Source: Schmidtea nova
Taxonomy: Eukaryota
Reading direction: 5' to 3'
Length of the DNA: 64,000 bases
Assembly: GCA_044892505.1 (NCBI GenBank)
Contig: CM097883.1
Coordinates: 227,726,001-227,790,000 of the forward strand
Below, piece after piece: positions 13,330 to 41,825 of the stretch. Made by a program: the position numbers and the translations under genes. How positions within the stretch are numbered: position 1 is the stretch's first letter; each line of letters opens with the position of its first letter. The notes under the pieces were generated by a model, which searched no databases, had not been told where the DNA came from, and was given only the letters and a program-made list of their open reading frames with translations.

Positions 13330-14557
13330 TTTATAACTAAATTTATTTGTTTCTTTATTCATTTACGTCAAAGTTAGGTAACAATATATTTATTATTTGA
13401 AATATGTTCAAGTATTGAGCTTTTGCACATAAAATCCATAACAGAATTGGTTCTGCTACTAGGGCTCTGCTCGCAATGTTCTGCTACGAAATGTTTTGTC
13501 ACTATGATAAATACATGAAAAGTTATTATACTATTGAGATAATCACACAAATTATTCTTACATTATAGTACAAATATATCAAAAATATATGAAATATACT
13601 TGAAATATTATCACAGTATCATTACATACATGAAATATCATTATACTATTGTGGAAAATATCATCATACTGCAATTACATAGAAAATCACCAAAGTTACA
13701 CACAAAATATGAAAAGTACATAGAATTTCGTTTCATACAAAAACATAATATATATGAAATATTATCAAAAATACATACAAAATACATAGAAATTTATCAC
13801 ACACGTACAAAATATCACCATACTATAGTGAATAAATATACATACAAAATATCAGAAATACAAACATACATAAAATATCATCTTACTATAGTTTGATAAC
13901 ATAGACATACATGAAATAACCACAAAATACAGAAACTTTCAAAGATATATAGATTCATCACACATACAAAATATCACATATAAGAAATATCATTACAGAT
14001 TATCACATGCATGAAATATTATTATTATAGTGCAAATTACATAGAAAGTAGCAAAGATACATGAAATATCATCACAAAATACACACAAAATTATAGGAAA
14101 TTTTCACACACTAGAAATACATACAATCATAATCATAAAAAGAATATTATCACGCCAGTACAAAATTATACACAGAATATTATCTCATTGAACAAAAGCT
14201 TATCATATATATTATTATACTTTTATGTAAACTACAAAAAGAAATACAAATATATACACAAAATATTATCACATTATAGTGCCTAAACATTAGAAATATT
14301 CACAAATTATATATAATATGATCATAAAATATCAAAGATTTACAAAGAAAATACACAAAAGATTATATTATTGTTTGATAACATAAAACTACATTGAATT
14401 ACATAGACAATGATTAAAATACATACAAGTATCATTACATACATGAAATATCATCATACTATAGTGCAATTACATATATATTCATCAAAAATATACAGAA
14501 ATTAATCAAATTCACAACAATATTCATTAAAGAAATATCTACATACTTGTGCAAACA

Positions 14558-15076
14558 ACAAAGAAAAATACAAACATATACACAAAATATTATCACATTA
14601 TAGTGTCTAAACATTAGAAATATTCACAAAATATATGAAATATGATCATAAAATATCAAAGATTCACAAAGAAAATACACAAAAGATTATCATATTATTG
14701 TTTGATAACATAAAACTACATTGAAATACATAGAAAATGATTAAAATACATACAAGTATCATTACATACATGAAATATCATTACACAAAATATTATAACA
14801 TGCATGAAATATCTACATACAAAATATCAAAAGTACATAGAAATAAATCCTATACACAAAGGATATCATTACATATATTAAATATTATCACAAAATACCT
14901 TTACATACATGAAATATCATCATACTTTGTTGCAAATACAGACTAAATATTATCATGCTATTTTGTAAATACACTTAATATTAAAAAGAAATATCATACA
15001 TACACAAAGGATATCATACACATGAAAATCTGTCATGTTAGTCAGTCAAATGCATGACTTATTATCATACTAGTGT

Positions 15077-15122
<46 letters not shown>

Positions 15123-17091
15123 CAAAAAATGTATCATACATACAAAGTATATCAATACAAAGTATCATTACATGCATGAAATATCATCATACTACAGTGC
15201 AATTACATATATAATAATCAAAAATATACAGAAATTAATCAAATTCACAACAATATTCATTAAAGAAATATCTACATACTTGTGCAATTACATAATAAAT
15301 ATACAAAACTATCAAAAATAGATGAAATATCATCACAAATATCAACACATATGAAATATTATCATACATACACAAAAGTAATAAAATCATACTTAGAAAA
15401 TCAATACATACAAAATATCAAAAGTTCATCACACATACAAAATATAATTACATATATCATCATACTATAATTTAACAGTAATAAATGTTTAACTAATGAG
15501 CTTTTGCACATAAAAACCATCACAAAAGATGTTCTGCTACCAATGTTTTGGTCGTAATGTTCTGCTACTAAATGTTCTGATACTGAATAAAATTGATATA
15601 AATGTAACAATGTATTATGAATGAAAATATATCTTACAAACATTACAGAAAATTCTACTTTAAAATGAGGTCGAATGTTTGAAGTGTCATCATACTATAA
15701 TGTAAATACATAAAAAATACTCACAAAGTAACATTAGATACATCAAATATTATCTTACTATAGTTTGATAACATAGAAAAAATATATAGAAATCATCAAA
15801 TTATACATACAAAATATTAAAAATAGATCATATTAAATGTCATTACAAAATACATATATATAATCATCAAAAATATACAGAAATTAATCAAATTCACAAC
15901 AATATTCATTAAAGAAATATCTACATACTAGTGTCATTACATAAAAAATATCAAAAATATATGAAATATCATCACAAATATCAATACATATATGAAATAT
16001 TATCATATATACAAAGGATATAATCACATACAAAACATCAAACGTTCATTACACATACAAAATATAATCACATATATCATAATACTATAATGTAACAGTA
16101 ATAAATGTTCAAATAATGAGCTTTTGCACATAAAAACCATCACAAAAGATGTTCTGCTACCAATGTTCTGATACTAAATGTTTTGCTACTGTATAAAATC
16201 AATGAAAATTATAGGAATAAAAATAAATCTTCCAAACATTACAGTAAATTCTACTTTAAAACAATGTTGAATGCATGAAATGTCATCATACTATAGTGCA
16301 AATACATGAAAATACTCACAAAGTGACATTAGATACTTTAAATATTATCTTACTATAGTTTGATTATAAATATATAAGTATGAAAACCCGTTTTGTTTTT
16401 TACAATAATGTTTAAATTCTTGATGTTTCTGTGATGTCTCATTGTAGTTAACCCGCGCGCGTATTTCCAATAATTATTTCACATCTTTATTGCAGATTAT
16501 CATTTTATTATATTAATTTCATGCTAGCAGTACATTGCGAACAGAACATTTAGTAGCAGAACCTTTTCTGTGATGGTTTTTATTTGCCAAAGCTTATTAC
16601 TCGAACATTTTTTGCAATTTATTCAGCATCATTTGTTCTAATATTTTCACCAATTAATATTTTCTCTAATGTTTTTTTTTAAATATCTATTAGTTTTCCT
16701 CATTTTTATGTAGGATTTACTCTAACAATTTATTGTCACTCGTATAATTTTCATTAAATTTATCCACTAGCAGAACATTTCGAACAGAACCTTTAGTAAC
16801 AGAACATCTTTTGTGATGGTTTTTATGTGCAAAAGCTCATTATTCACACAAATACTAAAATAACAATCATTAGCATATGAGCTTCGATCAATGTAACAGA
16901 TAAATTGTGAAAGCATATTACATTTACTGATACACTTTTAATGACAATTCTTATGTGAATATTTATTGTTTGATGAATTGCTATGTATGTTTGATGAATT
17001 TCAATGCATATTAGATATTTTGTGGTCATTTTCTTGTAATTACACTATAGAAGGATGATATTTAAGGTATTTAATAATACTTTGTGATGAC

Positions 17092-17161
<70 letters not shown>

Positions 17162-18554
17162 ATATGTATTTCTAATGTTTTTGTGATATTTTGTGATAAT
17201 ATTTTGTCTATGTTTGTATTTTTGATAATTTGTACATGAATTTCTATATATTTCGATCTATTTTTAATATTTTGTGTATATTTTGATGATTTCTATATAT
17301 TTTCTCAATGCTATCAAACTATAGTAAGATAATATTTAAAGTATCTAATGTCACTTTGTGAGTATTTTCATGTATTTGCACTATAGTATGATGACATTTC
17401 ATGCATTCAACATTGTTTTAAAGTAGAATTTTCTGTAATGTTTGGAAGATTTATTTTTATTCCTATAATTTTCATTGATTTTATACAGTAGCAAAACATT
17501 TAGTATCAGAACATTGGTAGCAGAACATCTTTTGTGATGGTTTTTATGTGCAAAAGCTCATTATTTGAACATTTATTACTGTTACATTATAGTATGATGA
17601 TATATGTGATTATATTTTGTATGTGTAATGAACGTTTGATGTTTTGTATGTGATTATATCCTTTGTATATATGATAATATTTCATATATGTATTGATATT
17701 TGTGATGATACTTCATATATTTTTGATATTTTTTATGTAATGACACTAGTATGTAGATATTTCTTTAATGAATATTGTTGTGAATTTGATTAATCTCTGT
17801 ATATTTTTGATGATTATATATATGTATTTTGTAATGATATTTAATATGATCTATTTTTAATATTTTGTATGTATAATTTGATGATTTCTATATATTTTTT
17901 CTATGTTATCAAACTATAGTAAGATAATATTTGATGTATCTAATGTTACTTTGTGAGTATGTTTTATGTATTTACATTATAGCATGATGACACATCAAAC
18001 ATTCGACCTCATTTTAAAGTAGAATTTACTGTAATGTTTGTAAGATATATTTTCATTCATAATACATTGTTACATTTTCATCAATTTTATTCAGTATCAG
18101 AACATTTAGTAGCAGAACATTACGACCAAAACATTGGTAGCAGAACATCTTTTGTGATGGTTTTTATGTGCAAAAGCTCATTAGTTAAACATTTATTACT
18201 GTTAAATTATAGTATGATGATATATGTAATTATATTTTGTATGTGTGATGAACTTTTGATATTTTGTATGTATTGATTTTCTAAGTATGATTTTATTTCT
18301 TTTGTGTATGTATGATAATATTTCATATGTGTTGATATTTGTGATGATATTTCATCTATTTGTGATAGTTTTGTATATTTATTATGTAATTGCACAAGTA
18401 TGTAGATATTTCTTTAATGAATATTGTTGTGAATTTGATTAATTTCTGTATATTTTTGATTATTATATATGTAATTGCACTGTAGTATGATGATATTTCA
18501 TGCATGTAATGATACTTTGTATTGATATACTTTGTATGTATGATACATTTTTTG

Positions 18555-18598
<44 letters not shown>

Positions 18599-19197
18599 AC
18601 ACTAGTATGATAATAAGTCATGCATTTGACTGACTAACATGACAGATTTTCATGTGTATGATATCCTTTGTGTATGTATGATATTTCTTTTTAATATTAA
18701 GTGTATTTACAAAATAGCATGATAATATTTAGTCTGTATTTGCAACAAAGTATGATGATATTTCATGTATGTAAAGGTATTTTGTGATAATATTTAATAT
18801 ATGTAATGATATCCTTTGTGTATAGGATTTATTTCTATGTACTTTTGATATTTTGTATGTAGATATTTCATGCATGTTATAATATTTTGTGTAATGATAT
18901 TTCATGTATGTAATGATACTTGTATGTATTTTAATCATTTTCTATGTATTTCAATGTAGTTTTATGTTATCAAACAATAATATGATAATCTTTTGTGTAT
19001 TTTCTTTGTGAATCTTTGATATTTTATGATCATATTTCATATATTTTGTGAATATTTCTAATGTTTAGACACTATAATGTGATAATATTTTGTGTATATG
19101 TTTGTATTTTTCTTTGTAGTTTACATAAAAGTATAATAATATTTCATATATATGATAAGCTTTTGTTCAATGAGATAATATTCTGTGTATAATTTTT
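14558..19197. repeat. Large foldback inverted repeat: arms ~14558-16364 and 17313-~19197, ~950-bp spacer, centre ~16838
   Basis: ORF-track peptides recur nearly identically on opposite strands (14737+/18938-, 15282+/18395-, 15643-/18034+). Inner boundary checked base by base at 16364/17313. Outer right end matches 14162. Related modular sequence extends left to ~13400. Confidence 0.92.
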
Positions 19198-20165
19198 TCG
19201 GTATTATTTTCATTGTCCTCTTTGGGAATTCTCGACATTGCATCGGCATTTGCGTTGGCTTTGCCTGCTCGATATTTAATCTCAAAGTCGTATTCTTGAA
19301 GTGCAATTGACCAGCGGATCAATTTACTAGGCGAATCTCAATGCTTCATTAGCCATTGAAGAGGGTTATGATCAGTGTACACAAAAAATTTTCTCCCCAA
19401 CAAATATTGTCTAAATGTAGCAATCCCATAAACTAACGCTAAAGTCTCTTTTTCAATCGTTGAATAATTTTTTTCATGTGGTCTCAAGGATCTGCTTGCA
19501 TACGCTATCACGTCATCTTTTTCACCGTCCATCTTTTGACCTAGTACAGCACCCAGTGCAACATTACTTGCATCGGTCATCAGTAGGAAAGATTTTGTAA
19601 AATCTGGACATCGCAAAATTGGTGCTGTTATTTATTTTTGATTCAATGCTTCAAAAGCTTCTTGTTGAGTTTTACTCCACACGAATTTATTATTTTTCTT
19701 TAACAATGAGTTTAATGGCTGAGCGATGTGCTAAAAATTCTTTATGAATTTTCTATAATAACTTGCTTATCCAAAAAATTGTCTTGCCTGATCAGGGTTC
19801 AGTGGAATTGGATACGCTTCAACTTTCTGAATATTTTCAGGATTAATTTTTAGGCCTCTTCGTGATATTATATGACCAACATATACCACTTCCGATTTTC
19901 CCCATTCACATTTCGGCGGTTTTATTTTTAATTTTGCACTTTTCAATCATTCGAATACTGTCTCGACATCATTAAGATGCTCGTCAAAGTCATTTGAAAA
20001 TATAATTATGTCATCAATATATACTAAAGCATGTCTAATGCCTCTCAATACGAAATTCATGCCTCTCTGGAATGTTGCCGGGGCTCCAGTTAAACCGAAC
20101 GGCAAGACATTAAATTCGTATAGGCCTTTACCATCCGAAAACGCTATATTATCTGCCGGTTTCAT
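19197..20165 (-). pseudogene. pol: Gypsy reverse transcriptase (C-terminal half) and RNase H
   Basis: [83 protein letters not shown]. Several stops. Confidence 0.95.
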
Positions 20166-20169
20166 TTCT

Positions 20170-22278
20170 CTTAATTGGTCCATCGGATAAGCTGGTAGAG
20201 GTTGAATAAATGAATTTGGTATACATAATCTAGTAAAGGTATCTTGATTACTGTTGTTAAAAAATGGTTTTTTTATGAATTGACATTTTTTTAATGTTTT
20301 AATTCCTTCGGTTTGTTTTCGCTCGTCTGAATATAGTGGTGTCTCTTCATCGGTATTATCATTGTCATTTTTGTCATCATTAGAAGCAGTGGTAATATTA
20401 CTATAGCTTCCCTTTTTCTTTTTCAACATTCGCGTTTTTAAAGTTTCCATTTCTTTATATTGGTGATGTGTAATGAAAATTCTTGCGAGCAATGGTACAC
20501 ATCTAATAACTAGTTTCCAGGACCAACCCGTGATAACATATAATCTATGTGTTGATAACACCTGCGATATTATTACTTTAATCACGATCCCGATCACATA
20601 AATTCCGATTAACCCAGCACAGGCTTGTCCAATAAACAAGAATTTTCCCCATATCTTTTTCATCGTATTGTATGTTGCTCTTTTATAATGATCAGCTGTC
20701 AATAGATAATCATAATTCACTTTCCCAGTTCCACTCGGGAGGATAGTGACTATCATCTCCATAATTACTCTTTCCTTTTTTGATGGAAATAATAAGTTTC
20801 TCCGAGCTTCTTCAATATCATCACTGGAATACAACCCACTTTGAGTCATACTATCTAAGGATGTAAAATTAATCAAATATTCCAATTTTGTCAACTCCAA
20901 CTTTTCTGGAACTTTGACTCCTCTATGATCCGGTAATGAAATCTACGATTCAGGTGTCAAGAGATATAATGGAGCAAGTAGTCTATTACATTGTAATACT
21001 TTGGGCTTCACTTCCTCAACCAATAAAATCCGTGTTACTGGTTCCATGAATCGTAGTTTTCCTTTAAAATTTACTGGCAATTCGTTTGTGCATTGGTCAT
21101 ATTTCATCAATTTAATGGGTACTGCTTTGCATTTATAGTTATACAATGCTTCACCATAATTTCTAGCGAATACTCCATTCTCCGATATTAACATTGGAGC
21201 AACTAAATTTGGATTAGTAATTGCCATCGCCATTCTATTTCGTAAAATTTCTTTATTTAATTTGCAGTCATTCAGTATGATTTCTCTGTACACGCTTTCG
21301 ACCGTATCCTGACCAAAATGGAATAAATAGTCAATTTTATTATTAAAATAGTTTGTTAATTTGATTTCTTCTGAGTAAAACTTGGTTTGAGCTTCTTCAA
21401 CAGTTTTTTTTTATACATATATTCCTTTATAATTTGTCTCGTAAACAGTTTGTCCACATTTGGTATTTGCACCATTTCTTAAAAATCTCATCCCATCATT
21501 TGGAAATATTGCCATTAATACCGTTGGAGTATTTTTCATTCGTATTGGAGTAACTCTAATTGTCGTATTAATCATCGAATATAAGACTACTAAATTTTAT
21601 AAGACTGTGCTTTCTGGTCTCTCTTGAATTTGCTCTCCCGTTATTTCTTTAAACGGTATTCACTTCAAATGTGCCAAATTACACTTTTTCGTATCTACAT
21701 CGTATACTAAAATATATTCACCTGTTTTACAACTGGTTTCTCACATGTTGCAAAATGGATGCGTTTGAAGTTTTCCTGTATCATCATCGAACGATCCATC
21801 AAATTGTCTCAACTCTGTTTCATACTTCTCTATCACAACGACTTTATCAATAACATTTGTATCCACTTTATACGTTTCACCTTCACACTCACCATTTGAT
21901 TTGATTGATCCTTTGACTGTAATTGTTTCGCGAATTTTATGATTTAATTTTGCTTTCAGATTAATTTCCTAATCTACTTTTAATTCTCCTGTTTGAAAAG
22001 CTGCCAAACAGTTTTCGGGAGTTATTTCGATTACTCTTGGAATTGAGTACATTTTGATTAGCGAAGAATGACTCCATTTTCCGCAATAAAATATAAATGT
22101 TGTCCTTTTTGCCGTACATTCTCTCACTTACACGCCTAAATCCTGACTCTTGGTACACATGATAAGTTACTTCACTTGACCATTTTAGATTCCTTGGATA
22201 CGCATCTATACATTCAGCTACACCTACTAATGAATACACTTTTCCCATTTCAGTTTGAGAAAAATCATATGCTACCAT
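20170..22278 (-). pseudogene. env: Envelope glycoprotein, chuvirus-G-like
   Basis: MVAYDxS...VYSLVGVAEC; ECTAKRTTFIFYCGKWSHSS; LRNRMAMAITNP; GEALYNYKCKAVP...CTNELPV...FMEPVTRIL; QSGLYS; TM FLFIGQACAGLIGIYVIGIVIKVII (~20556-20642). I recognise this cysteine/motif spacing as chuvirus-like glycoprotein. Stops and frameshifts present. Confidence 0.75.
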
Positions 22279-22395
22279 TGATGTTGTGGTGTTGATAATT
22301 CCTAATATTATAAAAATAAACATTGTCAACCATGGATATATTATTTTTCCCTTTTTTGATTCATACACCCTTTTTGAATTCTTCGGTTTTAGTAT

Positions 22396-22758
22396 CAAGT
22401 TTTCCCATCCACCATTACATTTAATCCAACTAGTCACATACGTATTTGTCACTTTTGAGGCTTTTTCAATCCACTTTTCTGATTTGTCCGACTCCAAACA
22501 ACCATATGTGCCAATTTTTAGAACAACATAAGCTAGAACTGTTAGCACTACGTCTCTGTTCAAACCATCTTTAATTAACTCCTGAATTACTGTTTCATCA
22601 CAAAATATACTTTCTTTGACGTTACTTTGAAGTATGATTTGGAGTCGCCTTTTCATCTGTCTCGCAAGTTGTTGTATGAATTCATCTTCGCATATATTCT
22701 CTTCGTCTAGTGCATATAGTTCCATTACCAACCCCTTTAAAATCAGTTCTGTTTCCTC
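22396..22758 (-). pseudogene. Bcl-2-family-like domain embedded in the retroelement reading frame
   Basis: BH1-like ELIKDGLNRDVVLTVLAY (cf. ELFRDGVNWGRIVAFF) and BH2-like VTSWIKCNGGWENL (cf. WIQENGGWDTF) at the right spacing, followed by a basic linker and hydrophobic helix PWLTMFIFIILGII. Confidence 0.75.
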
Positions 22759-23162
22759 CGAATCATTTGAGTCTATTTTATCGAACTCGGCTACGTCGTC
22801 TTTTCCAGTTATCTCAAAATCTTTCCGCTTACGGCTGTTACGTTCATCATTACTTTCCGTTTCTAAAAAATTCGATTCGTGTTTTATCCCTTCAATAGAT
22901 ACCGGCTCGTCATTTGTATCTTTAGATTCCTGATGTACTGCATCATTTTCATCAGTCATTATTGTCATCAGTCATACTTCCTATTTGCAATTCATTCAAA
23001 ACTTTATCTTTTGACTCGTAGTTTTCTAACTTAGCTTCGTTTAATTCATTAGATATTTCAGTTTTAATTTCTTTGGACTTTATATCTTCATCTGTATCCC
23101 TTGCAATTCTAGGCCAATGCGAGACGATAGCCTCATTATCAACCATATCATCCGTTTGCTTC

Positions 23163-23377
23163 GTGGCATATACATTATTTATATAATTTGGATTACATCC
23201 ATAGTTAACTAAATATTCGTCATCGTCTAGCTCGATTCCTCTAAATGTTAATATAATATTCCCATCATTACCCATTGTCTCTGCAGACTTTCGTCGTAAT
23301 TTCGATACCATTGCGCTCCAATGCTCTTGAAAGTACTCAACTTTTCCTCCTATGTTTAGAGATATTACTAATGACTT
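23163..23377 (-). pseudogene. Ubiquitin-like domain 2
   Basis: LVISLNIGGKVEYFQEHWSAMVSKLRRKSAETMGNDGNIILTFRGIELDDDEYLVNYGC aligns by eye to ubiquitin ([20 protein letters not shown]). In frame with ORF 24694-23426 across one TAA. Confidence 0.6.
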
Positions 23378-23639
23378 CAGATTACTATCCGATTCTCTGT
23401 AATCATGTCCTAGTTTTCGTATAGTTTATTTTAATCTCGCTTGATAACTCGTCTTCTTATGAATATAAGGTAAAATGCATTCAAACAATTTCTCTTTAGA
23501 CTTTTGACTCATTTGTGAATTCAACATAGATTCAAGACATTTATTAATCTCATCTTTATCTCCAATATACAACATATCTCGCAGATCTTGCAGAGTTTCC
23601 TCCCAACTTTTAAATTCTGAATTTGAAATATTAACAGTA

Positions 23640-23860
23640 TTTATAATTCTAACCTCATTTTTGAATCCCGGGATTAAACCAAAATCGACCAAGTATTTAT
23701 CATCCCTCAGTTGACCCATTTGCGGTTGTATCAGTTCTACACTGCTTCCATTATATTTAGTCATAATAAGTCCTTTCAAGTCTTTTATTTGTCCATAAGC
23801 ATTAATAGAAAATTGAGTTCTCAAATCATTGATGTCTGTGGCTTCGACAAAAATATCATC
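23640..23860 (-). pseudogene. Ubiquitin-like domain 1
   Basis: IFVEATDINDLRTQFSINAYGQIKDLKGLIMTKYNG...LIQPQMGQLRDDKYLVDFGL aligns by eye to ubiquitin (IFVK...TIENVKAKI...[15 protein letters not shown]). Confidence 0.62.
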
Positions 23861-24339
23861 TAAATTGTTTTTGAATCGTAAAGCTCTCCCAAATATTCTC
23901 ATTAGTTTGGCAATTCTGTCATCTCGATGTGCGTTGTAGGACTTAGCACATAGGTTCAATATACTTTTCAATTTTCTTGGACTGAGTGACATTCGGCTTA
24001 GCTCTGTTATCCACTCTTTCAATCTTGGATTGTTTCTTTCCATCCTTGCGAGCCATCCTTCCACTTTCTTTATCAATAACGTAGCCTTTTCATTCAACAA
24101 CTCATCTTTTACTTTATTAGCAAAATTTCCTTTCACTTCTGATACATTTTCATATACCATAAAGAAGTCTGCTTCATCATCCGATTCGAATTTGGACATC
24201 AACTTGTTTAATTTCTGTCTCATTTCCCGAAATTTATTTTCCATTTTTTCTTTGAACTCGTCTTTTTGAGCATAAGCTACATTGGCATTGGACGATTCGT
24301 CTTGAAATCTAATTGATTTCTTTAGGATAGGTCTTCCAA

Positions 24340-25415
24340 ACCTTTCCGAATTTCTTGGGCATGATCGAGCCATGTGGCCATAACTTTTGCATGAATGGCA
24401 TTGAATGTGTCCATTGGCATTCACTTTTTCTCGTTGCGATGAAGGAGATGTGGAGGGTGATCGAGTTCTTGAAAAGCAATTTCTGCTAATATGGCCCATT
24501 TTTCCATATCGATAGCATTTAATGTCAACATTGTTTGGATTGTTTTCCATAAAATTTCTTTTGGGACTAATATTTCTGCCATTTTTGAACCAACATTGAT
24601 TTGAATAATGTCCGACCTTCTTGCAATACTCGCATGCAATATTATTCGATCTCTCGTTGGTCTGATTACTAAAGGTTGCTGCTATTAATTTCAAATTTAT
24701 TACCTAATCTTGGAGAGCTGTTTGGTTGGATTGGTTTCTTTGATTCCCATTGATTCTTTACTGGAGTTATTGATCTTTCTCGTTTATCAACATTGATGGC
24801 AAATACGTCAGACTTTTGGGTGCTTTCTAAATTCAATTCCATCTTCATTGCTTTTCTCACCAATTCGTCAAAATTCGAAAAATCCACGTAACACAATGCC
24901 TTTTTGATTTCAGGATGGGCTCCCGTTATAAACTGATCTTGAAGCAGTTCTTTGACTTGTTTCATCATTTCAACTTGCTCAGGCTTTATTTCGAATACTT
25001 TATCTGCTAAAATAGTTAAATGGTAGGCGAACTCACTTACCGATTCATTTGGATTCTGCACTTGATTGTAAAACTTTTGTTGCATTATTCTTTTGCCATC
25101 TCCTCCCACCAATTTCATCGTCATTGCATCTTTTAATTTGGCCCAATCATTTCCAACTGTCTTTTTATCAACTTGCTGACAAGCTTCTCTCGCAGCTCCC
25201 TTTAGATATAATGGAAATCTTTGTGCCATAATGGCTTCTGACCACCCATATGCTGAAGCGTACATATAATAATCACCCATAAAATCAGCAAATTCTACTG
25301 GGTCTCCTCCATATTGATTCACCGGCAACTTTTGGCAACTTGCGAAATCAATAATCTCGGCATTCTCTTTAGCCATATTGATTATTTTTCGGCTTCTCAA
25401 GTTATACTCGCTCAA
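24340..25415 (-). pseudogene. gag: Gag (capsid-like plus three CCHC zinc knuckles), one frameshift at ~24680
   Basis: YGGDPVEFADF...FPLYLKGAAREA...QNPNESVSEFAYHL...DQFITG; CEYCKKVGHYSNQC, CYRYGKMGHISRNC, CHSCKSYGHMARSC. Confidence 0.92.
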
Positions 25416-25543
25416 CTCTAAATATTAAGTATCGATAATTAATAATTTATACCTTTTTAACGACTTTCCCACAATTTTGCTTTCAAAATTCGCTTTTTAT
25501 TACCTCACTATTCCTTTTTAGCGTTTTCTTTCTCCGACTTTGG

Positions 25544-25561
25544 ATCACGTCGGGCTCACCA
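25544..25561 (-). promoter_or_regulatory. Primer-binding site, tRNA-Trp type
   Basis: TGGTGAGCCCGACGTGAT matches the well-known tRNA-Trp PBS TGGTGACCCCGACGTGAT at 17/18 positions. Lies 6 nt inside the LTR end (cccaata). Confidence 0.85.
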
Positions 25562-25567
25562 AAAATA

Positions 25568-26600
25568 TATTGGGTTTAATTAAAACAGATATTATCGTCG
25601 GTGCCTGACTCCTCGTGTTCAAACAAATCAGTAAGTAATAACACTCCCAATGTATATTTGTTTAGATCGACACAATCTTTTTACAATTCACAGCAATAAT
25701 AATACAACGTCCTAATTATTCGATCGAGCTCCGCCGTGCGATGTGGTGACCTCGTGCGCTCTATAGCAATAATCACTTTGCATATCAGAATCCTCTGGAT
25801 TGATCTCTTTTTCTTTAATAATTTCGCCTTCCTTTGAATCAGCTCCTTTTTAATTTCTTTACTCTTTTTCTCTCGTATTTTCCTATTTCTTCTGACTCTG
25901 CTACCTTTAACCTAATCTCGTTTTCTTCTCCCTAACGATTGTTTTCAATTTAGAGTTTCCTTATATAATAAGATAATCATTTTGATTAATTAGTAATTTG
26001 GCCAAATCGCCTCTGTCTGACAATGCTTTGACAATCATTTTTCTTGAATATCGTCTGAGAGCTTATAGTGATTGATTGCCCTCTTCTGTTACCCTTTCGT
26101 ATTAACCAATTTGTTTACTCCTATTACTCATAATGACAGGATAATGGCTTTTCCGAAATCCGCTTTGTTTACTCTCCTTGTTTGCCGAGCTCGGGTTTTC
26201 TTCATCTCTCGGGTTCTCCATTAGCTCGGGTTTCCCATTCGCTCGGGTTTTCCATTATCCAATTAATTAATTAATTAATGGTTTTTTTTGTTTTTGTGCA
26301 TATGTATGCTTTCCGACCCTTTCTGAACATTTTCTGACCGATTCCTAATCATTATGTTCTTCACCAATAGCTAATCTATACCTGTCCTGTTTTCTACATT
26401 CAATTTCGATAAATTAACCATTTATTCATTTTTCTTAATTTGCACATTTGCATTTCGAATTTCACTGTACCATATCCTAACTCTGTTTCCCTTATAATTT
26501 CCTTGGTTATTCGTTCTGTGCTTGATCACACTTCTCCATATACCTGTTTCATTCAATTTTCATCTAGAATTTCATTTAAAATTTTATTTATAATTTTATT
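25568..26600 (-). mobile_element. 5' LTR of the env-bearing element (outer end truncated or uncertain)
   Basis: Ends cccaata next to the PBS. Contains 4x ggaaaacccgag-type repeats shared with LTR pieces at 8.2, 33.6 and 53.3-53.5 kb. Confidence 0.6.
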
Positions 26601-26850
26601 TAAAATAATTTTGATTTAAAGACCTTAACACATTAATAGCATTTGTTTTCAATGAAGGCAATATTTTCTGATCTTTCATGATAACGTCTTTGGCAGTTTT
26701 CATTCCAAAACTAACTAATCGCTTAAGTATTGGAAGTGCAAATTTACCAATAGTTTTCAGCCAACCTGATCCATACTGTTTACCTACAAAATACGGTAAT
26801 TCGCCACCAGCTTGGCTATTACTGTACAAAGAAACTATATCAGGATTATG
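26596..26850 (-). pseudogene. Polinton/adintovirus small core-like protein, 3'-truncated
   Basis: QAGGELPYFVGKQYGSGWLKTIGKFALPILK matches the conserved QxGG-xLPxF-G...GxG...FRxAxPxLK pattern of Maverick/adintovirus virion proteins. Confidence 0.7.
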
Positions 26851-27860
26851 TATCGCTTTTTCGAAAATGTAGAGTCAAATGAGTTTTTGAATTTTTTGGA
26901 AAGTTTATTAAATTACCTCTATCGTCTCTGATATTAATTTCTATATTGTTTATACAAGACGTTAAAACAGTTCAATACATTGGATTTTCTACTTGTATTT
27001 GAACAACTTCATCCTGTTCATGTTTTTTAATCCATACCGATTTTACCATGGGAACTAATGAATCGCCAACAATTATAGGATTGACTATTATACTGTAAAT
27101 GAACATTTGTTGATGAAGTTTAATTATTTTCGGTTTATTTATTCCTATATTTAAATATCCATTTTGAGCGTATGTTGCTTTCGCTAGTCCTAACGTTTGT
27201 ACGAGGTTTCTGTCAAAAGTAATTTCACTAATATCAGGATTCAAACTGAATATGAAGTAAATATCATCTATCAATTCCAATGATTTAAAGATACTTGCAC
27301 AATTTTGAATCATATATGATTGCATTTCATCCAATTTCGATATGTATAAGTTATCTTTAAATGTATATACAAAATCAGTATCAGCCTTGAACTCCATCTT
27401 GAATCTAATTTTTCAAATCTTTCGCCAACTTTGTTATATTTAGGTAACGGTATCTTGTAGGACTTTCAGAACTCTGTTTCGGTAATCATAATCTTTTTGC
27501 CATTGCCAAAGTATCAAATGTTATTGTGAAGGGATAATGATCACAGGTGAAATAAATAGAATTCTTATCGCTAGACATTTGAGCAATATCATCGGCAGGA
27601 TTAGATATATCAACTTCATTTTGTAGATTGTCAATAACCAAATTATTTTATTTGGAGTGCAAAGTTTTCATTTTGTATCGAATTTCAGCTTTACTATAAA
27701 ATGGAAATGGATTATAGACAAATGTAAAGTCTAATAGAGCGACTTCCCAAATACCGTCTAAATAAATCGGATTTTGTAGATTGACCATGAATTTACTGGC
27801 AGTATTTTCTGGATCTATATCGGGACAACTGTTGCTAGGTAAAACAATATAAAAATTCAT
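26846..27860 (-). pseudogene. Minor capsid protein (penton, single jelly-roll) of Polinton/adintovirus type
   Basis: N-term MNFYIVLPSNSCPDIDPENTASKFMVNLQNPIYLDGIWEVAL; C-term MFIYSIIVNPIIVGDSLVPMV...IEINIRDDRGNLINF...LTLHFRK. Premature stops and one frameshift. Confidence 0.85.
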
Positions 27861-28888
27861 TTTACTAGGTTTTTTGATGATATCCATGATGGTTCTTTAT
27901 ATCCATGCCACTTGACATAGTATTGTTTATCTTTATCAATATTTTTTGAATTCTAAATATTGTCGGCAGGGGAATAACTTGCAATTCTTGTTCAAAGAAT
28001 TTTCCACTGACTATATTGTTATCAGAGTCAGAAATAGTATACATGACAGGATTCTGGACTGTGTTGACATTCGATATTTTAAAAACCTCATCACTCCAAT
28101 TACTATCAAAGTTTTTAATGAATGGCGATTCACTAATTTTACTAATTTGAACATGATCACCAATTTTATATTTTGGTTTCTTTATTTTTATATCACTCAA
28201 GATATTTTCAGTATCAACTACTTCAGCAGGTTTCTTGCCATTTATACCTCGATGAGCAGAATGATTATAACTATGAATCATTTGTGGTAAAACATTAATC
28301 CATGTTTTATTCCTTTGATGCAGAAAATACTTTTTGAGACGATCCCTCAAGGTACGATTAAATCTTTCAACATGGGCTGCTTTGAATTGAGAGAATACCG
28401 AGTAATGATTGATTCCCTTTATGGCTTCCTTGACTTTACTGTTGTAAAATTATTTGCCTAGATAAATAAATATCATTTTATAAAAAATTTATTAGCTTAC
28501 CCAAATCAGTTTGTAAATTATTTGGACGTCCACCTTTGAACATTGTTTTGATTGCGATTTCCATATCATTGGCAGATTTAGATTTTACTGGAACAGCCCG
28601 AGCAAATCGACTGTAAACATCAATACATGTTAAAATATATTTGTATCCCTTGTTAATTTTTGAATAGGGAATCATTTCCATCAAATCTATTTGCCACAAA
28701 TCATTAATTCTATATGTTTTGTATGCTCGTGTCGGAAACCTTTTCAGCATAGGTTTGTTTAGACTGTATGCAAGTTGCCCCGAAAACCAACTTTGAGTTT
28801 GTCTTTTTGAATTCGATACATATTTCCTTAGCTTTTTGACTCCACCAAAACCTGCTTCGTGCTTTGGGTTCGTCCATATCTTCTCCAT
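27857..28888 (-). pseudogene. Polinton c-integrase (rve, DDE) with C-terminal chromodomain, interrupted by a 43-nt intron
   Basis: WQIDL...YKYILTCIDVYSR, LQTDLG|K*FYN, HVERFNRTL, FDSNWSDEVFKI, YYVKWHGY...SWI. Removing 28500-28458 restores the frame. Confidence 0.92.
28458..28500 (-). other. Spliceosomal GT-AG intron (43 nt) in the integrase
   Basis: GTAAGC...tatttatttatcTAG. Splicing joins GAT TTG G to GC AAA (T/G)AA TTT TAC AAC, giving the conserved TDxGxEFxN motif. Confidence 0.8.
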
Positions 28889-28943
28889 TACAGCAAGAAG
28901 ATTTAAAGTTTAAATTAAGATTAGGCAATGATTGACCCATTGT

Positions 28944-29290
28944 TTATGACCTTTTTCCTAATAAACCAGCACCTCTCAATAATGATAATGCTAATGGTAA
29001 CAATGCTGCAATAAACCCTCCTTGTTGTTTATATATTATTTTACGCATTAGTTTTTTATTTTTTGTTTTTACAAGTGAGAAAAAATGCTTCTTGTGTTTG
29101 TTCAAAACTCTTCTATTGGATGCACTTATTGATTTTACCTCTAACAACTTTATTTAAAATCGTTAGTAAATCATCAATAACGTAATTAGGAAACGATTGT
29201 AAAATACTCATTCTTCTAATACTTGGGGCTTTAAGTAATGCATTGAAAAATGGGAAACTACGATGATGTATTTGTTTTGCATTTGGTTTG
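28944..29290 (-). pseudogene. Conserved small basic Polinton/adintovirus protein with C-terminal QQGG-F amphipathic peptide, frameshifted
   Basis: FFNALLKAPSIRRMSIL...VIDDLLTILNKVVRGKI joined by frameshift to RRVLNKHKK...KQQGGFIAALLPLALSLL. Confidence 0.7.
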
Positions 29291-29489
29291 TAAGTATTTT
29301 GAATACGATTATCCTTTATGAATATTATCAATAAATAATTGTTTAGATGGTGTAAAACTAGTTTTCGAAACTGATTTCTTTGTTTTCTTTGGAACTTTTT
29401 TTTCCCCGGTTTCTTCATTTTTCTAGCCTTTATCAATCGCTCAAACTTTACTCGAGATTTCAATAACATTATTGAAAATATACAATTAA

Positions 29490-30113
29490 TCAACTTTGTT
29501 TATAAACCATGGCTCCTTCCTTGTTGAAAATATCTGTTCTAACTCTTAAATCATCACTACATTGTTGTGTGAAATCAAGAAAAAGATATCCATGAGGAGC
29601 TTTTGTAGCATCTTGGAATGCATCAATCAAGAAATTTCGATTAGAAGGGTGTGCTTGTCTTGCAAGAAAGTCAATAACTTTTGCTTCTCTAGGATTTTTA
29701 AAAACAACAAGATATTGAACATTCAAATTCCGGGTTCGATGATTGTCGCCCTGATGAAATAAATTCTGAGTAATAAAAATAACTGTAACACTTTTGAGTC
29801 TAGCGAGTTTTGTAAATAAATTGTTAAAATCCTTTTCTTTATTTGCTTCTTGATACAAATCATCAATAATAATCACATCCCCTTCTCTTAATCTAGATGA
29901 CCAATTTTTATCGAAACCTTTTATGATTGTCATTTTTATTTTACAAAATTGGTCTTGAGTCATTCCATGTTCCTCATCTGCACCCCTATGCCAATAAATT
30001 TTATTAAACTTTGATTTGAATAATTTTGATTGTAATAATTTACAAACAAATAAAGTTTTTCCACTCCCGCTCGGTCCAACAATTCGAAACACTGCATCAT
30101 TTCCTAATTCCAT
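29490..30113 (-). CDS. A32/FtsK-like DNA packaging ATPase (Polinton/adintovirus)
   Basis: Intact 207-aa ORF. Walker A GPSGSGKT, Walker B VIIIDD, IFITQNLF, RTRNLNVQYLVVFKNPR, HGYLFLDF. Confidence 0.93.
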   Translation of the reverse strand: MELGNDAVFRIVGPSGSGKTLFVCKLLQSKLFKSKFNKIYWHRGADEEHGMTQDQFCKIKMTIIKGFDKNWSSRLREGDVIIIDDLYQEANKEKDFNNLFTKLARLKSVTVIFITQNLFHQGDNHRTRNLNVQYLVVFKNPREAKVIDFLARQAHPSNRNFLIDAFQDATKAPHGYLFLDFTQQCSDDLRVRTDIFNKEGAMVYKQS

Positions 30114-30204
30114 ATTTCTTATTTTATTAATTAATTATTATTGTTTATATTTGTTTTAAATAATAATTGTTTTTATTATTGTCATATTTAAAATATTTTC
30201 ATTA

Positions 30205-30666
30205 ATGATTAGCAACATAAATTATAAGGGTAAGACTGATGTATCGCACATGAATTTTCCTAAGGGGAAACCACAACAAATTGTAAATAGAAGTGGTAAA
30301 TATCCGATAATATATTTTAAGACCGGGAGATTTAGAATTATGGGATGCAAGGAATTTATTAGTGATGAAAGGGTTTACGACTTAACAATACAATTGATTA
30401 CTGTAATTGCAGATTGAGGATTTATTTGTGATTTAAATGATTTGGCTAAATTAATAGAATGTGTTTACGAGCCAGAATTATTTCCAGCTTTGAGATATGC
30501 AAAATATAACCCCATGTGTGTTAATATATTTACAAGTGGTAAAGTAGTTATATTAGGTTTAAAAACTAGGGACTATTTAAATATAGTTGATAATATAATT
30601 ATGGATATAAAATCAATTATTGAAGATAAAGCCTTTGTTGATTTCATATTATCGTGTGACTCATGA
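30205..30666 (+). pseudogene. TATA-binding-protein-like gene (two-repeat core, ~153 codons) with one in-frame TGA at 30415-30417
   Basis: Repeat 2 YEPELFPALRY...VNIFTSGKVVILGLK versus TBP YEPELFPGLIYR...LLIFVSGKVVLTGAK. Repeat 1 IIYFKTGRFRIMGCK versus LIFSSGKMVCTGAK. The two track ORFs are in one frame. Confidence 0.8.
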
Positions 30667-30698
30667 TTGCAATAAAGATGCAAAAGAAATGCATGATT

Positions 30699-30804
30699 CT
30701 GATTGGTTCAGTATGTATTTCGATAATAAAGACATGTTATGCATACTCAAATCTGATTGGTTGATTGCGTGTTTCATTTTCTTGCGTGTTCTTTGGTATA
30801 TATA
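30699..30804 (+). promoter_or_regulatory. Pol II-type promoter: two CCAAT boxes and TATA
   Basis: CTGATTGGTT at 30699-30708 and 30753-30762, TATATATA at 30797-30804, ATG at 30839. AATAAA at 30671 just after the TBP-like stop. Confidence 0.5.
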
Positions 30805-30838
30805 CAATGAACATTTTACATTCATTTATTATTGTACA

Positions 30839-31427
30839 ATGTGTCTCAAAGCAACTTTGGTGAAATATGGTAAAGTTTTAAATTTATCATTTATCATTTT
30901 TATAATATTTATTTACAGATAAATTTATGGCCGTACTGTTCGGCAAAATGGAGGAGATGTTTCCAAGCCTGATGTTCAAACTAGTCTACACGGCTCCGGA
31001 GACGCTCCCAATCAAAATCCTTTCAATCACTAGCAAGAAACACGAACACAATGGCCAAACTCTACTCCAGAAGATGAGTCCGAATGTGTTCAAAATACTA
31101 CTGATTCTCCAAATCATTCTCCTTCAGAATGCCCAACTCTCGATGGGCCATATCCTCTCGAATCTGATAAGTCGCAACAATGCGATCAGTCGGAACAATG
31201 CGATCAGTCGCATCATTCGCAAGAATCGCCAGAATCGCCGAATTGCGATGAATGTTATCGTTAAGTCGATATGGACACTGCAGAATAAATGTTTTATGTG
31301 TTTAGTTTCTATGTGTCGTCATTTTTATATATTTTCATTTTTGTTATTATTTAATAAATGTATTTATGTTTTCGTTTTTATTTTATTTTATAGTAAAATA
31401 AAAGTAAATATCAAAGTTTTAAAGTAA
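30839..31427 (+). CDS. Hypothetical accessory gene, possibly spliced (49-nt intron 30870-30918); true frame ambiguous
   Basis: ATG30839...TATG|gtaaag...tttacag|AT puts exon 1 in frame with ORF 30927. An overlapping frame encodes an S/P/Q/E/D-rich peptide with AT-biased codons but has stops. Confidence 0.35.
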
Positions 31428-31779
31428 TGAAGTTTTCTATGCAAATAAGTATTTAAGTTTTAAAGTAAAATAAGATATAATTAAATTTGTAATTATGTTT
31501 TAATGTAAAAGTTTCTGTGATATGTTTTAAATTATTTATATAACTTAAATATGATAAAAACACAATAATTAAAAATGATAAATACATTTATTAAACACAT
31601 ATGCAGACATACAACAAAGGCACACACACATACATGCACGTTACAAAGACATGCATGCATGTACGTTACAAAGAAATGCATATAATGTGCAGTTAGAATG
31701 CATCATTTTGATTGGACAAAGACATTACTCATCACTATAGATACAAAGAGATTTTTAAGATATTGTCACAATTTAAAAA

Positions 31780-32196
31780 ATGCCAGCACGTAAATCAGCT
31801 TATGATATCAGTGAAAAAAGAAAAATCAATAATGAAGTCAAACCGGTTCAAATGTATTACGATTACAAAATATATTTCTTAGTACAAGAAATACCGTTTC
31901 GTTTGTCGTATCCAGTGAAATTAACAAAGTCTTTCTATGACAATTTAGCTGCAAATTTAAGTAATGAAGATGTTGTTGCACTAAATAAAATTTTATTCAA
32001 AATCAATAACAATTTAAGTTGCAAGGAAACTAAATGGATCAACAATCGAAAAACCCGTTTCCATGATGCTTTCCAATCAAACGAATACAAGGATCAAGAA
32101 AATTGGTTTATTACCATAATACTTCAGGGCTATAAAATCGATACAAAGGATGTTATAACTCCAATTTGGAGAATTGACAGTGCGCGATATGCATAA
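31780..32196 (+). CDS. Hypothetical 138-aa protein of the Polinton-like element
   Basis: Clean ATG-to-TAA ORF with protein-like composition, upstream GATTGG box (~31709) and downstream AT-rich 3' region. Confidence 0.6.
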   Translation: MPARKSAYDISEKRKINNEVKPVQMYYDYKIYFLVQEIPFRLSYPVKLTKSFYDNLAANLSNEDVVALNKILFKINNNLSCKETKWINNRKTRFHDAFQSNEYKDQENWFITIILQGYKIDTKDVITPIWRIDSARYA

Positions 32197-33720: not shown

Positions 33721-34374
33721 CTAATCGAAATTACTTTTAATTGTTAAATTATTTTCAGGAAATTCTCTGTTTAGTTCCTTATTTAATTATTTGATTCAAA
33801 ATTTTACCAACAGTAAAAAATTATATTATTTTAGCTATAAATTAAAACATTATGCGAAATTACAAAAATAAATTACAAATTCTTATAGATTTTTTAAATA
33901 CGTTTGTACAAATTATCATTTAAAATTATAATCTCAATTTTTACTTAAATTGTAAATGCATTCAAAAACAAATCTGGGAGAAAGAAACAATTCCCAAATC
34001 TCTTTTATGTCACGTGACCTCTGCAATTTTGCAAGTGATATCGATTTAAATGCTAAGTGTTACTAGCCATGAATAAATCATGCGAAAATAATTTTTGTCC
34101 AGTTAATTAAAACATCGAATAAATGGTTTTTTAATTAACTATATGCTACCTAAACGGAAACCAATATAACTGACAAAGGGAAACCTATTGTAGCTGCCAT
34201 CTTTAGGAAACTAAGAGGCTAAATTAAAATTGTATTTATACATTTAACTAGTCGATTAAAAAAAGATAATAAAAATAATAATTATAATAATAATAATAGT
34301 TAAATCAAACTCAGTTTTAAGAGACTGCAATTCCTTCATAGATTTATTTCAATTAAAATTTGATTAATAGACTT

Positions 34375-36830
34375 CTGATTATAGATTTCTAAACCAAATC
34401 ACAGAACCAGGCAGCTACCCATTACCAATTATAAAAGACATAATTATCCGAATAAAGGGCGCAAAATACTTTTCAAAAATAGATCTGCAAAAAGCATATC
34501 ATCAGATCCCAATAAGGAAAGAAGACATAAAAAAGACTGCAATAACAACACCGGTCGGAATGTTTGAATACAACCGAATGCCTTTCGGTCTACGAAACGC
34601 AGCAGCAACTTTCCAGCGATATATGGATCAAACAACGAAAAGCAACAAAAACACAATCGCCTATCTGGACGACATATTAATAACTAGCCCAGACAAAGGA
34701 ACACATTTAAACGACATTAAAAACGTGTTTGAGACATTAAAAAATGCAAAACTAAAAATCAACGCACAAAAATGCGAATTCATAAAAACCGAAATAAACT
34801 TCCTTGGACATACCCTAAACGAAAAAGGAACACAACCAATCGGAAACAAAATAAGCAACATTAAAAATTACAAATTGCCAATTACCACTGGGGAATTGAA
34901 AAGATTCCTGGGAATGGTAAACTTTTACCACTCTTATATTCCAAACTGTAGCAAATTATTGGCACCACTAAATGACATAATAAAATCAAAACGAAATGTC
35001 AAAATAAATTGGACTCAACAGACAACCGAAGCTAAAGAAAGCCTATCACAAGCAACATTACTTGGATATCCAGATCCAGAATTAGAATATCAACTAACAA
35101 CAGACTGTTCAGGTTTCGCAATGGGCGCAAATATTTATCAGGACAATCAATTTGGAAAACAACCAATAGGATTTTTCTCGAAAAAACTAAAGTCACATCA
35201 AATCAGAAATTCGACTTTTGACAGAGAACTCCTAGCAATACATGATGCAATTTAACATTTTCAACACTTATTAGAGGGGCAAACTTTTAAAATATATACT
35301 GACCACAAGCCCCTAATAAATGCAATAGCGATGAAGAATCCATCGCCAAGACAAATTCGACAATTAAATTTTATTTCCCAATTCAATTGCACTATAAATT
35401 ATGCAGCTGGAAAATCTAACGTCGCAGCAGATGCCCTATCTAGAATTGAAAGCGACATAAACTCCTTAGAATTCGAGGAAATAATAGAAATGGAACAAAT
35501 TAAACCTAAACAATCCGAGACAATAAGAAAACGTCCTACAAAACATAGCCTGAAACTTCAGGAATACAACGGAGTATGGTACGACATATCAAATGAAACC
35601 AACAAACGAATATTACTCCCAGAAGACTTCCGAAAAGGATGCATTGAAAAGATACATACAATAAATCACCCGGGAAACAAAACAACATACGAACTAATAC
35701 ATAACAATTATGTATGGCTCAACATGAGAACCGATATAAAGAATTTTGTAAAAAGTTGTCCAAATTGCCAACTAAACAAAACTTCAAAAAAATTCAAAAC
35801 TCAAAAGGTGAATTTCCCAAGCAGTCAAGCTTTTGAGATAATTCACACTGACATTGTAGGACCACTGCCACCAAACGAGGACAACAAATACTTACTGACA
35901 ATTATAGATAGAAAGACTAATTGGTTTGAGGTAATACCAATAAAGGAAATCACTGCTAAAAATATTTTCGAAATGATAGAACTAAACTGGATAGCTCGCT
36001 ACGGCCAACCAAAAACAATTATAACTGATCAAGGCAAACAATTCGAATCGGAAATGTTCAAGGTTCTTTGCAACAAATACAACATTAAAAGAAACCGAAC
36101 AACAGCCTACAACCCACAATCAAACAGAAATATTGAACGGTTTCATCGAACGCTGAAAGAAAGCATTAGAACCAAAGCTAATGATCATAGTTGGTTAAAT
36201 CAATTACCCACAATACTAATTGGTTTAAGAAATTGTCCTAATTCAACTGATAACGAAAGTCCTGCACACAAAGTATTCGGTAAATCAACAAATTTACCAT
36301 CACTGAAAACTAACAGTCAAAACAGAAAAGAAACCGAAATAAACAAATCAATTGAAAACAAACCAAAGAGAATCTTAAAAAAGAGATAAAACTCCGAAAT
36401 GGATAGAAAAGTAGTTTTAACGACAGACTACATCTTGATTAAAAAGCCCTTCACAAAAGGTTTCGAACCAAAATACGAAGGCCCATTCAAACTGTTCGAA
36501 ATTAACAAAAACGTAGCAACAATAATAAAAGACAACGTCAAAACAAGAATTAATCTAAGACAAATAAAACCTTACCACAACAATCAAAACATATGAAACA
36601 ACCCCACAAAAGACAAAGCACCGACACAAACAAAAACACAACCAAACCACAAACACATCACATTCAACCACAAAAACACAATAAAACTTTTCGACAAGGA
36701 CTCAATAATCACACCCCTATACATAAATCGATACAGCGAATGCTTTAAATAAAAACAGAAACACACACAAGCAAAACACATGCACAACATAGCTAATTGT
36801 ACAGTTTTTTTTATTTTTTTGTAAATATGT
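34375..36830 (+). mobile_element. pol: 5'-truncated Gypsy pol: RT - RNase H - integrase
   Basis: IDLQKAYHQIP, MPFGLRNAAATFQR, YLDDILI, TTDCSG, TDHKPL, HPG...CPNCQ (HHCC), HTDIVGP, ITDQGKQFES, ERFHRTLK, KYEGPF. Scattered stops. Confidence 0.95.
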
Positions 36831-40763: not shown

Positions 40764-41825
40764 TCTAAATAGTATATTAGCCGACGCCCATCACCGAGTA
40801 GATCTATCGTTATTTTATAGTCTCAAAATCATCAAAATCAAATCACACTTACATTTTTTAAAAGAATGCAAAAGAAGAAACATCATTCCCGTGAGCCTGA
40901 CTGTTACCAACAAACTGGAATCAACCTATCCATCTTTACAAGCATTGAAGCTTAAGGAAAAACAGGAAAAAGAATGGCTTAAGCTTAGCATATCAGCTTG
41001 TTACAAAAAGCTAAATGAATTTACTAGTTTTACTTGTGCTCCTCTTACTTGTGAAGATAATACTTGTTGCCAGAATTTCTCCAAAAATCTCGACATTCGC
41101 AAGCATAAAAAATTAGAAACGCTACTTTCAACAAATTCAAACAACACTAAAGACACTAACTCACACTCAAATTCAATTCTTCCATTTACAAACAAATCTA
41201 ATCACATTTTTTCAAAAACACAAGAAAACATCCTCGCTCTAGGGACCATCTTTTGTTCCTCCACCTAACCAGAAAGATTTAGAAAAAGCCGAAGTCATCA
41301 CTAACGCCTCTCTTATAAGCCTAAGAAGACAAATAGGATACCATCTAAAACCAATTTCATTCACCAAATCTTCAAGTTTAGCTGAAAAGCACAATCATCT
41401 TCTGGATCCAAATCGTAGAACATATCCAAATATGCCTGTCTTTTCGACTGAACTTGAAGAAAAAATCAGCTTTTTTAGAAACTAAAGTCAAAACTTTAGT
41501 CAAAGAACAAATTATCTTTCTTCAAAAACATTGCTCAACACAAAATTCTTTCACTTCAAACATAAAGAAAATTAAGAATTCCAAAGACTTCACAATTCTT
41601 CATTCAGACAAAACAAATCGACTAATTGCCCTTGACACAGAACAATACAATACTCTATTTGAAGAACATCTCTCGAACTATGAACCGATAAACAAAATAA
41701 TCTTACCTGCATCAACTCAGATTTTATACAATAAGAAACTTTCATCACTTGCAAATAAATAAATTAACCTTCAAATCAAAGATTTACTTTTAAAATGCAA
41801 CTGCAGTGAGCCTTTACCTAGTAAT

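Follow-up and report, generated by a model that had tools for sequence, protein, structure and literature searches.

Bcl-2 homologues encoded by viruses have been described in large DNA viruses. ASFV A179L, canarypox CNP058, KSHV Bcl-2, ORFV125, and vaccinia A52, B14 and A46 share the fold of the domain described here at 10–20% identity, and BH1 is changed in some of them. They are free-standing genes of large DNA viruses, with a tail anchor of their own or none, whereas the domain described here is part of a polyprotein and its anchor would arise through a predicted signal-peptidase cleavage. Among retroelements, the planarian giant Gypsy-like Burro/GYPSM1 elements are the closest described system. 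Section 7 of PMC6431247 reports that Burro elements carry a BCL2-like motif, a ubiquitin/SUMO-like motif before it, and an env in frame between BCL2 and protease; this domain pair, a BCL2-like domain with an in-frame env, is already published for Burro and is not new. The element described here resembles them in having one ORF with Gag, three CCHC knuckles, ubiquitin/SUMO-like and BCL2-like segments, and env before protease (PMC6431247). The Burro env matches mononegavirus fusion proteins (PMC6431247), and the Env here matches Monjiviricetes_fusion. Burro ORFs are 4,873–5,140 aa long (PMC6431247), whereas the ORFs found here are about 2,990–3,440 aa. Burro1–4 in the strict sense have an ORF of ~4,900 aa with BIR, MATH and ankyrin domains and exceed 30 kb; the present element differs from them in these respects, and the three intact ORFs scanned gave no Pfam match to BIR, MATH or ankyrin. 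It is best described as a compact Burro-like relative, a Ty3/Gypsy element with GAG-ENV-POL order. Burro1 IAP has been reported to protect planarian stem cells (Lee et al. 2026, as cited in PMC13465017).

Errantiviruses with GAG-ENV-POL order and a gB-type Env occur in flatworms, nematodes and bryozoans, and their ectodomains are flanked by a signal peptide and a TM or by two TMs (PMC13524379). Smed_errantivirus_1 and _2 have the gene order and Env type seen here, and 19 consecutive residues of the Env in our window (near 21800–21744) equal the Smed_errantivirus_2 row (PMC13524379). The fold, BH1, selection and the helix between BCL2 and env find no mention in section 7 of PMC6431247, and the string 'bcl' is absent from the main text of PMC13524379 and occurs in its supplements only within an unrelated assembly name. 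In the literature that we found there is no description of the fold, the constraint, the rebuilt groove or the membrane topology of the Bcl-2-like domain; Grohme 2018 and Lee et al. 2026 may say more.

The window, the whole stretch of 64,000 nucleotides from Schmidtea nova that was analysed, holds on its minus strand the remnant of a Ty3/Gypsy element that runs from gag (25421) to RNase H (19191) and houses the Bcl-2-like segment. The order in this copy is capsid, three CCHC knuckles, ubiquitin-like region, acidic spacer, Bcl-2-like segment, Monjiviricetes-type fusion glycoprotein, half RT and RNase H, collinear with an intact GAG-ENV-POL relative. Its features are as follows.

25556..26410, minus strand: remnant of the 5' LTR, with 75% matches to the LTR of an intact relative
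24678..25421, minus strand: Gag capsid region, ending in a frameshift near 24682 (Retrotrans_gag E 6e-8; 79% identity to an intact relative)
23155..24679, minus strand: three CCHC knuckles, a helical region and ubiquitin-like segment(s), with a stop at 23428 (zf-CCHC E 2e-9)
22774..23154, minus strand: acidic low-complexity spacer with a frameshift near 22964 (dN/dS 0.60 between lineages)
22390..22773, minus strand: Bcl-2-like helical domain, from profile and fold matches
22581-22528, minus strand: BH1-like stretch, in the same frame as the other motifs
22549..22560, minus strand: NWGR position of BH1, here NRDV
22396..22428, minus strand: BH2-like motif, its GGW invariant in a 12-row alignment
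22345..22389, minus strand: basic linker, the predicted cytosolic n-region, differing in length among lineages
22294..22344, minus strand: hydrophobic helix of 17 residues, the predicted internal Env signal sequence and anchor of the upstream product
22279..22293, minus strand: polar c-region of 5 residues, ending at a predicted signal-peptidase site (22279/22278; −3/−1 rule, 13/14 junctions)
20625..22278, minus strand: Env ectodomain, Monjiviricetes_fusion / HSV gB-type (PF24664 in two pieces, E 1e-25 and 2e-26)
20568..20624, minus strand: C-terminal transmembrane helix of Env, followed by a basic amphipathic stretch
19191..20144, minus strand: second half of RT and RNase H, with stops, truncated at 19191 and joined to Env across a deletion of ~415 aa

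The window copy is dead and matters only as a family marker. It carries three net frameshifts (near 24682, 22964 and 22129) and 12 stops, about 415 codons have been deleted with loss of the protease and the first half of RT, and an inverted-repeat element truncates it at 19191. Within the Env ectodomain, the frameshift near 22129 is joined by stops, and the first conserved Cys is gone; 14 Cys are conserved across the Env segment of the family, and the Env of an intact relative matches PF24664 at E 2e-87. The ubiquitin match in an intact relative (E 0.003) is below the cut-off. The first-pass annotation had named BH1- and BH2-like motifs, a basic linker and a hydrophobic helix, and all of these are present in one frame on the minus strand. 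The ORF in which it placed them (22968-21961) is, as a free-standing gene, only a fragment between the frameshifts near 22964 and 22129; it seems to start at the spacer because of the former frameshift, and its equivalent in intact relatives is residues ~840–1120 of a 3,345-aa frame. In SMVAYD, which the annotation gave as the glycoprotein N-terminus directly after the helix, the Ser is the predicted −1 residue, so that Env would begin at Met.

Relatives were sought in the same genome (1.25 Gb), where 150 of 1,553 candidates were scored and all 150 matched. A polyprotein frame of ~3,300 aa (3,200–3,400 aa) is open in about 30 of the 150, and the window's own lineage (79–92% identical matches) showed only short frames among the scored relatives. 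A single ORF in the order Gag-Env-protease-RT-RNase H-integrase was found in all three lineages scanned (3,232–3,393 aa), and additional lineages have ORFs of 2,992–3,442 aa. The family is young, since the two LTRs of one intact relative are 99.8% identical over 1,059 nt. An exhaustive search of a public protein library with a profile of 12 copies returned 13 proteins: six with the domain-helix-Env junction, four free Bcl-2 proteins, and three fragments without Env. At E≤0.001 the domain matched no protein in word-index searches, and metagenome and viral contig scans produced 292 and 20 pattern matches, respectively, none of which was confirmed. In the ESM Atlas, Bcl-2-type clusters stood at the top of the list (best score 0.80, recognition 1770), which we take as a lead only. 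One protein, P0015 (2,099 aa), has in a single chain Gag, a UBL-like segment, the helix and cleavage site, Env and two protease-like stretches; no Bcl-2-like domain was detected in it (three Bcl-2-like profiles score it at −2 to −5.5 bits, and no GGW lies upstream). Because the domain is absent from P0015, it is not needed by every member of the family. P0015 offers a natural control for the role of the domain. Three contig runs cover the element, with no bearing on its splicing or expression.

The window segment matches Pfam Bcl-2 (PF00452) at E 4e-4 with 21.3 bits, below the curated 31.4; copies of a sister lineage exceed the curated cut-off, and all 12 aligned relatives match at E≤1 (best 2.2e-8). 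A profile of the domain finds Bcl-xL in the PDB at E 4.7e-7, and within the BH2 pattern W-x(4)-GGW the residues W, G, G and W are invariant in 12/12 rows. AlphaFold2 predicts a bundle around a central hydrophobic helix 5, with seven helices for the window copy (pLDDT 80.7) and eight for an intact relative (pLDDT 83.7), in which helices 3 and 4 are 7 residues each. The best VIA-align match has Z 13.6 (rmsd 2.9, 129 aligned), and the first 35 rows are all Bcl-2 folds before the first unrelated one at Z 5.4; the second model gave Z 12.0 (rmsd 3.2, 128 aligned), with Bcl-2 folds in the first 33 rows and the first unrelated one at Z 5.6. A Z near 13 is not decisive alone for a helical bundle. Viral Bcl-2s lead the list of viral structural matches. 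The proposed eight-helix Bcl-2-like domain is thus borne out, with eight helices in the intact relative, seven here, and only Bcl-2 folds among the top structural matches. The suggested check by AlphaFold and Foldseek came out in part: every row that Foldseek listed from the PDB belongs to the Bcl-2 family, but none reached E≤0.001 (best 4.2e-3). Taken together, profile matches and models indicate that the segment is a diverged Bcl-2 homologue with a predicted Bcl-2 fold. A resemblance of its linker to that of Bcl-xL is not kept in other lineages and was taken as chance.

In a 31-row tree, 18 element-type rows, of which P0002, P0004 and P0012 show no Env, form one branch with support 93/87, below the starred level, and this branch adjoins the divergent host-type paralogues L041, L043, L044, P0007 and P0010. 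The tree is compatible with one capture of the domain and is no proof of it; the source might have been a divergent host paralogue.

Neutral dN/dS had been named in the first-pass annotation as an outcome that would speak against its proposal, and it was not what we observed. Between the window copy and the nearest intact lineage, the domain has dN/dS 0.19 (bootstrap 0.11–0.32, 123 codons). Six dead sister copies compared with the same intact lineage gave 0.21 for the domain, 0.20 for the UBL region, 0.10 for Env and 0.60 for the spacer, these averages being taken over six related pairs. In deep pairs, the domain ratio was 0.19–0.41 where dS was defined, several ratios being undefined because dS was saturated; its dN was 0.35–0.64 compared with 0.11–0.19 for Env, i.e. 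3–4 times faster. The RH-IN row of L035/L074 was a misalignment (the L074 frame ends earlier) and was left out. All genomic lineages examined retain the domain in frame with its GGW, even at identities as low as 22–37%. The domain is constrained between lineages, more loosely than Env.

The sequence at the canonical NWGR position reads NRDV in the window copy, so that the pro-survival BH1 signature is absent, and the annotation had offered altered BH3 binding or decay as reasons. The Trp is missing in 18/18 element rows and WGR occurs in none of them; the Gly position has Gly in one row and Asp/Glu in 12, and the Arg position has Arg/Lys in 11/18 rows, with Val/Leu in 7/7 of the window's clade. 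Among free Bcl-2 rows, Trp is present in 12/13 and WGR in only 5/13. Decay as the reason for NRDV does not hold up, because a change of this kind is also found in intact young lineages, the Trp is absent throughout the element rows, and dN/dS between lineages is about 0.2; NRDV is, to judge from the alignment, an old lineage-wide state and not damage to the window copy. Altered BH3 binding is plausible. The BH1 Gly and Arg are residues important for gripping BH3 helices, and parapoxvirus ORFV125, which has SPGR, binds Puma about 250-fold more weakly (PMC9027176); a canonical BH3 grip is therefore unlikely in the window's clade. As alignment and model indicate, the groove is remodelled (Trp lost, Gly mostly acidic, Arg lost in the window's clade, helices 3 and 4 short), and the canonical Arg-Asp grip on BH3 helices is therefore probably not used. 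We also considered an NWDR-type BH1 as ancestral and rejected it: a Trp codon is found in 2/11 copies of that lineage, both with stops, and differs from the Arg codon of the other nine by a CpG-type change.

The helix between the domain and Env has the anatomy of a signal peptide. When 12 lineage representatives are aligned on the start of Env, the n-side is basic, the core from about −22 to −6 is hydrophobic, and five polar residues follow. The −3/−1 rule is obeyed at 13/14 junctions, with a small residue at −1 and a small or aliphatic one at −3, and none of 20,000 shuffles of positions −5 to −1 did as well, a test that overstates independence because the 14 junctions are related. Neighbouring registers fit the rule in 0–5 of 14, except +3 (10/14). 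The n-side is net positive in 10/14 junctions, and the c-side is never positive. Helices were called by hydropathy. By this measure, one helix before and one after Env is present in 7/7 genomic ORFs, the helix of P0005 is below the threshold, helix 5 of the domain is a marginal membrane segment in 3/7, and a signal-like helix follows the integrase in 6/6 ORFs reaching that far (marginal in one), with a last helix in three. The stretch after the Env helix is basic and amphipathic and could in principle cross the membrane, and glycosylation sequons showed no separation of lumenal from cytosolic segments. Helix parity would put both Gag and the Bcl-2-like domain on the cytosolic side and Env in the lumen, and would return Pol to the cytosol, where its enzymes have to be. 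In the precursor the helix is internal, and it would become C-terminal only after the predicted cleavage; because of its signal-peptide anatomy, anchoring of the upstream domain after that cleavage is likely. There is a precedent in flavivirus anchor C, a helix that anchors an upstream cytosolic protein and is also the signal sequence of the next glycoprotein, with the viral protease cutting on the cytosolic side (PMC7601889). The two are not homologous, and in anchor C the c-region is poor and cleavage is delayed (PMC7601889), whereas the polar c-region here fits the rule. That one helix has two jobs is, we think, a sound inference.

With a probability of roughly 0.55, we favor the interpretation that a Burro-like Ty3/Gypsy element encodes one Gag-Env-Pol polyprotein with a diverged Bcl-2 homologue as a part of it, that the helix following this homologue is most likely Env's internal signal, and that the predicted cleavage would leave the domain held at the cytosolic side of the ER membrane, where it likely promotes cell survival in a non-canonical way. 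The parts of this interpretation are not equally firm; the membrane topology is highly probable, while a survival role of the domain has about an even chance. The polyprotein would thread the membrane as in flaviviruses, with Gag to Bcl-2-like domain in the cytosol, helix 1 leading in, Env in the lumen, helix 2 leading out, protease-RT-RNase H-integrase in the cytosol, and helix 3 leading in again. Signal peptidase would cut five residues past helix 1, and the upstream product would then be anchored in the membrane with its Bcl-2-like domain on the cytosolic ER face. A second cut, by the element's protease, might free the domain from Gag. A candidate protease word after the UBL aligns in only 5/7 rows, and another proposed word, with 0–2 occurrences per ORF and no shared position, was rejected. 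The domain might dampen cell death. The topology would explain how lumenal Env and cytosolic Pol can come from a single ORF, and a Bcl-2 kept under selection across many retroelement lineages suggests a strategy of host survival that operates in flatworm stem cells. One could go further and propose a flavivirus-style four-pass polyprotein whose Env signal doubles as the anchor of a captured Bcl-2 with a rebuilt groove, the released ER-tethered protein blocking death of host stem cells via a non-canonical partner, e.g. Bok-like proteins. We regard this extended version as speculative and rather unlikely; if it is true, this would be the first functional Bcl-2 known from a reverse-transcribing element and would join the reported Burro IAP as a second survival factor.

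Several alternative scenarios can be envisioned. The helix could be a tail anchor that the captured Bcl-2 gene brought with it and that Env then adopted as its signal sequence, as the first-pass annotation had it. In the window's lineage, it begins ~23 residues past GGW, compared with ~20 in three free Bcl-2 proteins, its n-side is basic, and P0015 could have lost the domain and retained the helix. However, across the 12 lineage representatives the distance from GGW to the site ranges from 45 to 79 residues while that from helix to Env is fixed, the Env family profile covers the helix from position 5, P0015 has the helix without the domain, and a signal peptide or a second TM generally flanks the ectodomain in gB-type errantiviruses (PMC13524379). 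Because the helix travels with Env and occurs in P0015, tail-anchor ancestry is unsupported and we consider it quite improbable; the signal-peptidase-type site and the anchoring topology in the original proposal stand. Most likely, the helix is Env's own entry signal, anchoring whatever lies upstream. A different question is what the anchored domain does. It might be a canonical viral Bcl-2 whose groove sequesters host Bak, Bok or BH3-only helices despite the changed BH1, given that the best structural matches are BH3-binding pro-survival proteins, that Arg/Lys is kept at the Arg position in 11 of the 18 element rows and WGR is found in only five of the 13 free rows, and that ORFV125 still binds BH3, weakly, with SPGR (PMC9027176). 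Against this stand the loss of Trp from all 18 rows, Gly in just one, Asp/Glu in 12, and replacement of Arg by Val/Leu in the whole of the window's clade (7/7), when Gly and Arg are named as important residues (PMC9027176); helices 3 and 4 of only 7 residues in the model also argue against a canonical groove, and we think this function unlikely.

A purely structural role is also conceivable, in which the anchored domain acts like a matrix protein, tethering Gag to membrane rich in Env until protease cleavage, and has no part in cell death. Vaccinia A52, B14 and A46 are viral Bcl-2 folds without an anti-apoptotic role, and they are among the structural matches. The domain shares one chain with Gag and the membrane helix and is placed between the two, evidence for its N-terminal release is weak, and the fold is kept though the canonical groove residues are gone. 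The helix alone would supply a tether, however, P0015 lacks the domain, and the domain changes much faster than either capsid or Env, so that such a role appears doubtful, about as improbable as tail-anchor ancestry. Least probable of all, and in our view very improbable, is a captured gene with no remaining activity that is eroding as a passenger. The window copy is dead, dN/dS among the six dead sister copies is 0.60, one young pair has a ratio of 0.80 (0.23–2.48), and one relative is without the domain. Yet Env shows 0.62 among the same dead copies, and the ratio of ~0.6 therefore reflects decay of the whole element; between lineages, the domain's 0.19–0.41 and its retention in frame with GGW in every genomic lineage examined speak against a passenger. 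We therefore retain the reading of a tethered, non-canonical Bcl-2 homologue.

The host genome contains at least nine Bcl-2-family loci (L036-L044, L047, L061, L064), only two of which have NWGR, and a small divergent host Bcl-2 group is present in several copies. Two of the loci look Bok-like and two Bak-like by their motifs.

Other elements are found elsewhere in the window. Fragments at 26596-32196 include an rve integrase (28481-28909), an A32-like P-loop ATPase (29493-30134) and a TBP-like piece (30418-30663, E 2e-10); by these matches they are Polinton-like remains, and a stretch 84% similar to them lies in L029. An AT-rich element at 14209-19142, whose long inverted repeats are nested (1,286 nt and 581 nt, at 99%), interrupts the retroelement at 19191. 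Further retroelement remains at 34371-36389, 41763-43310, 48292-49677 and 57884-60184 comprise two Ty3/Gypsy pol pieces, one RT, and one RT with a GIY-YIG endonuclease (Penelope-like).

Two observations concern the intact relatives. L035 and L074 are nearly identical in the Bcl-2-like region and RT (dS 0.03–0.05) and differ at dS 0.6 in Gag and Env, a mosaic that suggests recombination between lineages, the switch lying in the linker. L033 (8890-9999), L086, L089, L035 and L103 have a second signal-like helix downstream of the integrase, followed by a segment of 130–330 aa that has no Pfam match and ends in a final TM helix in three; this segment is likely a second surface protein in the same ORF. 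A Y-x-L-R-S word present at the start of the ORF (window ~25405) recurs directly before the post-integrase helix in L033, L086 and L089.
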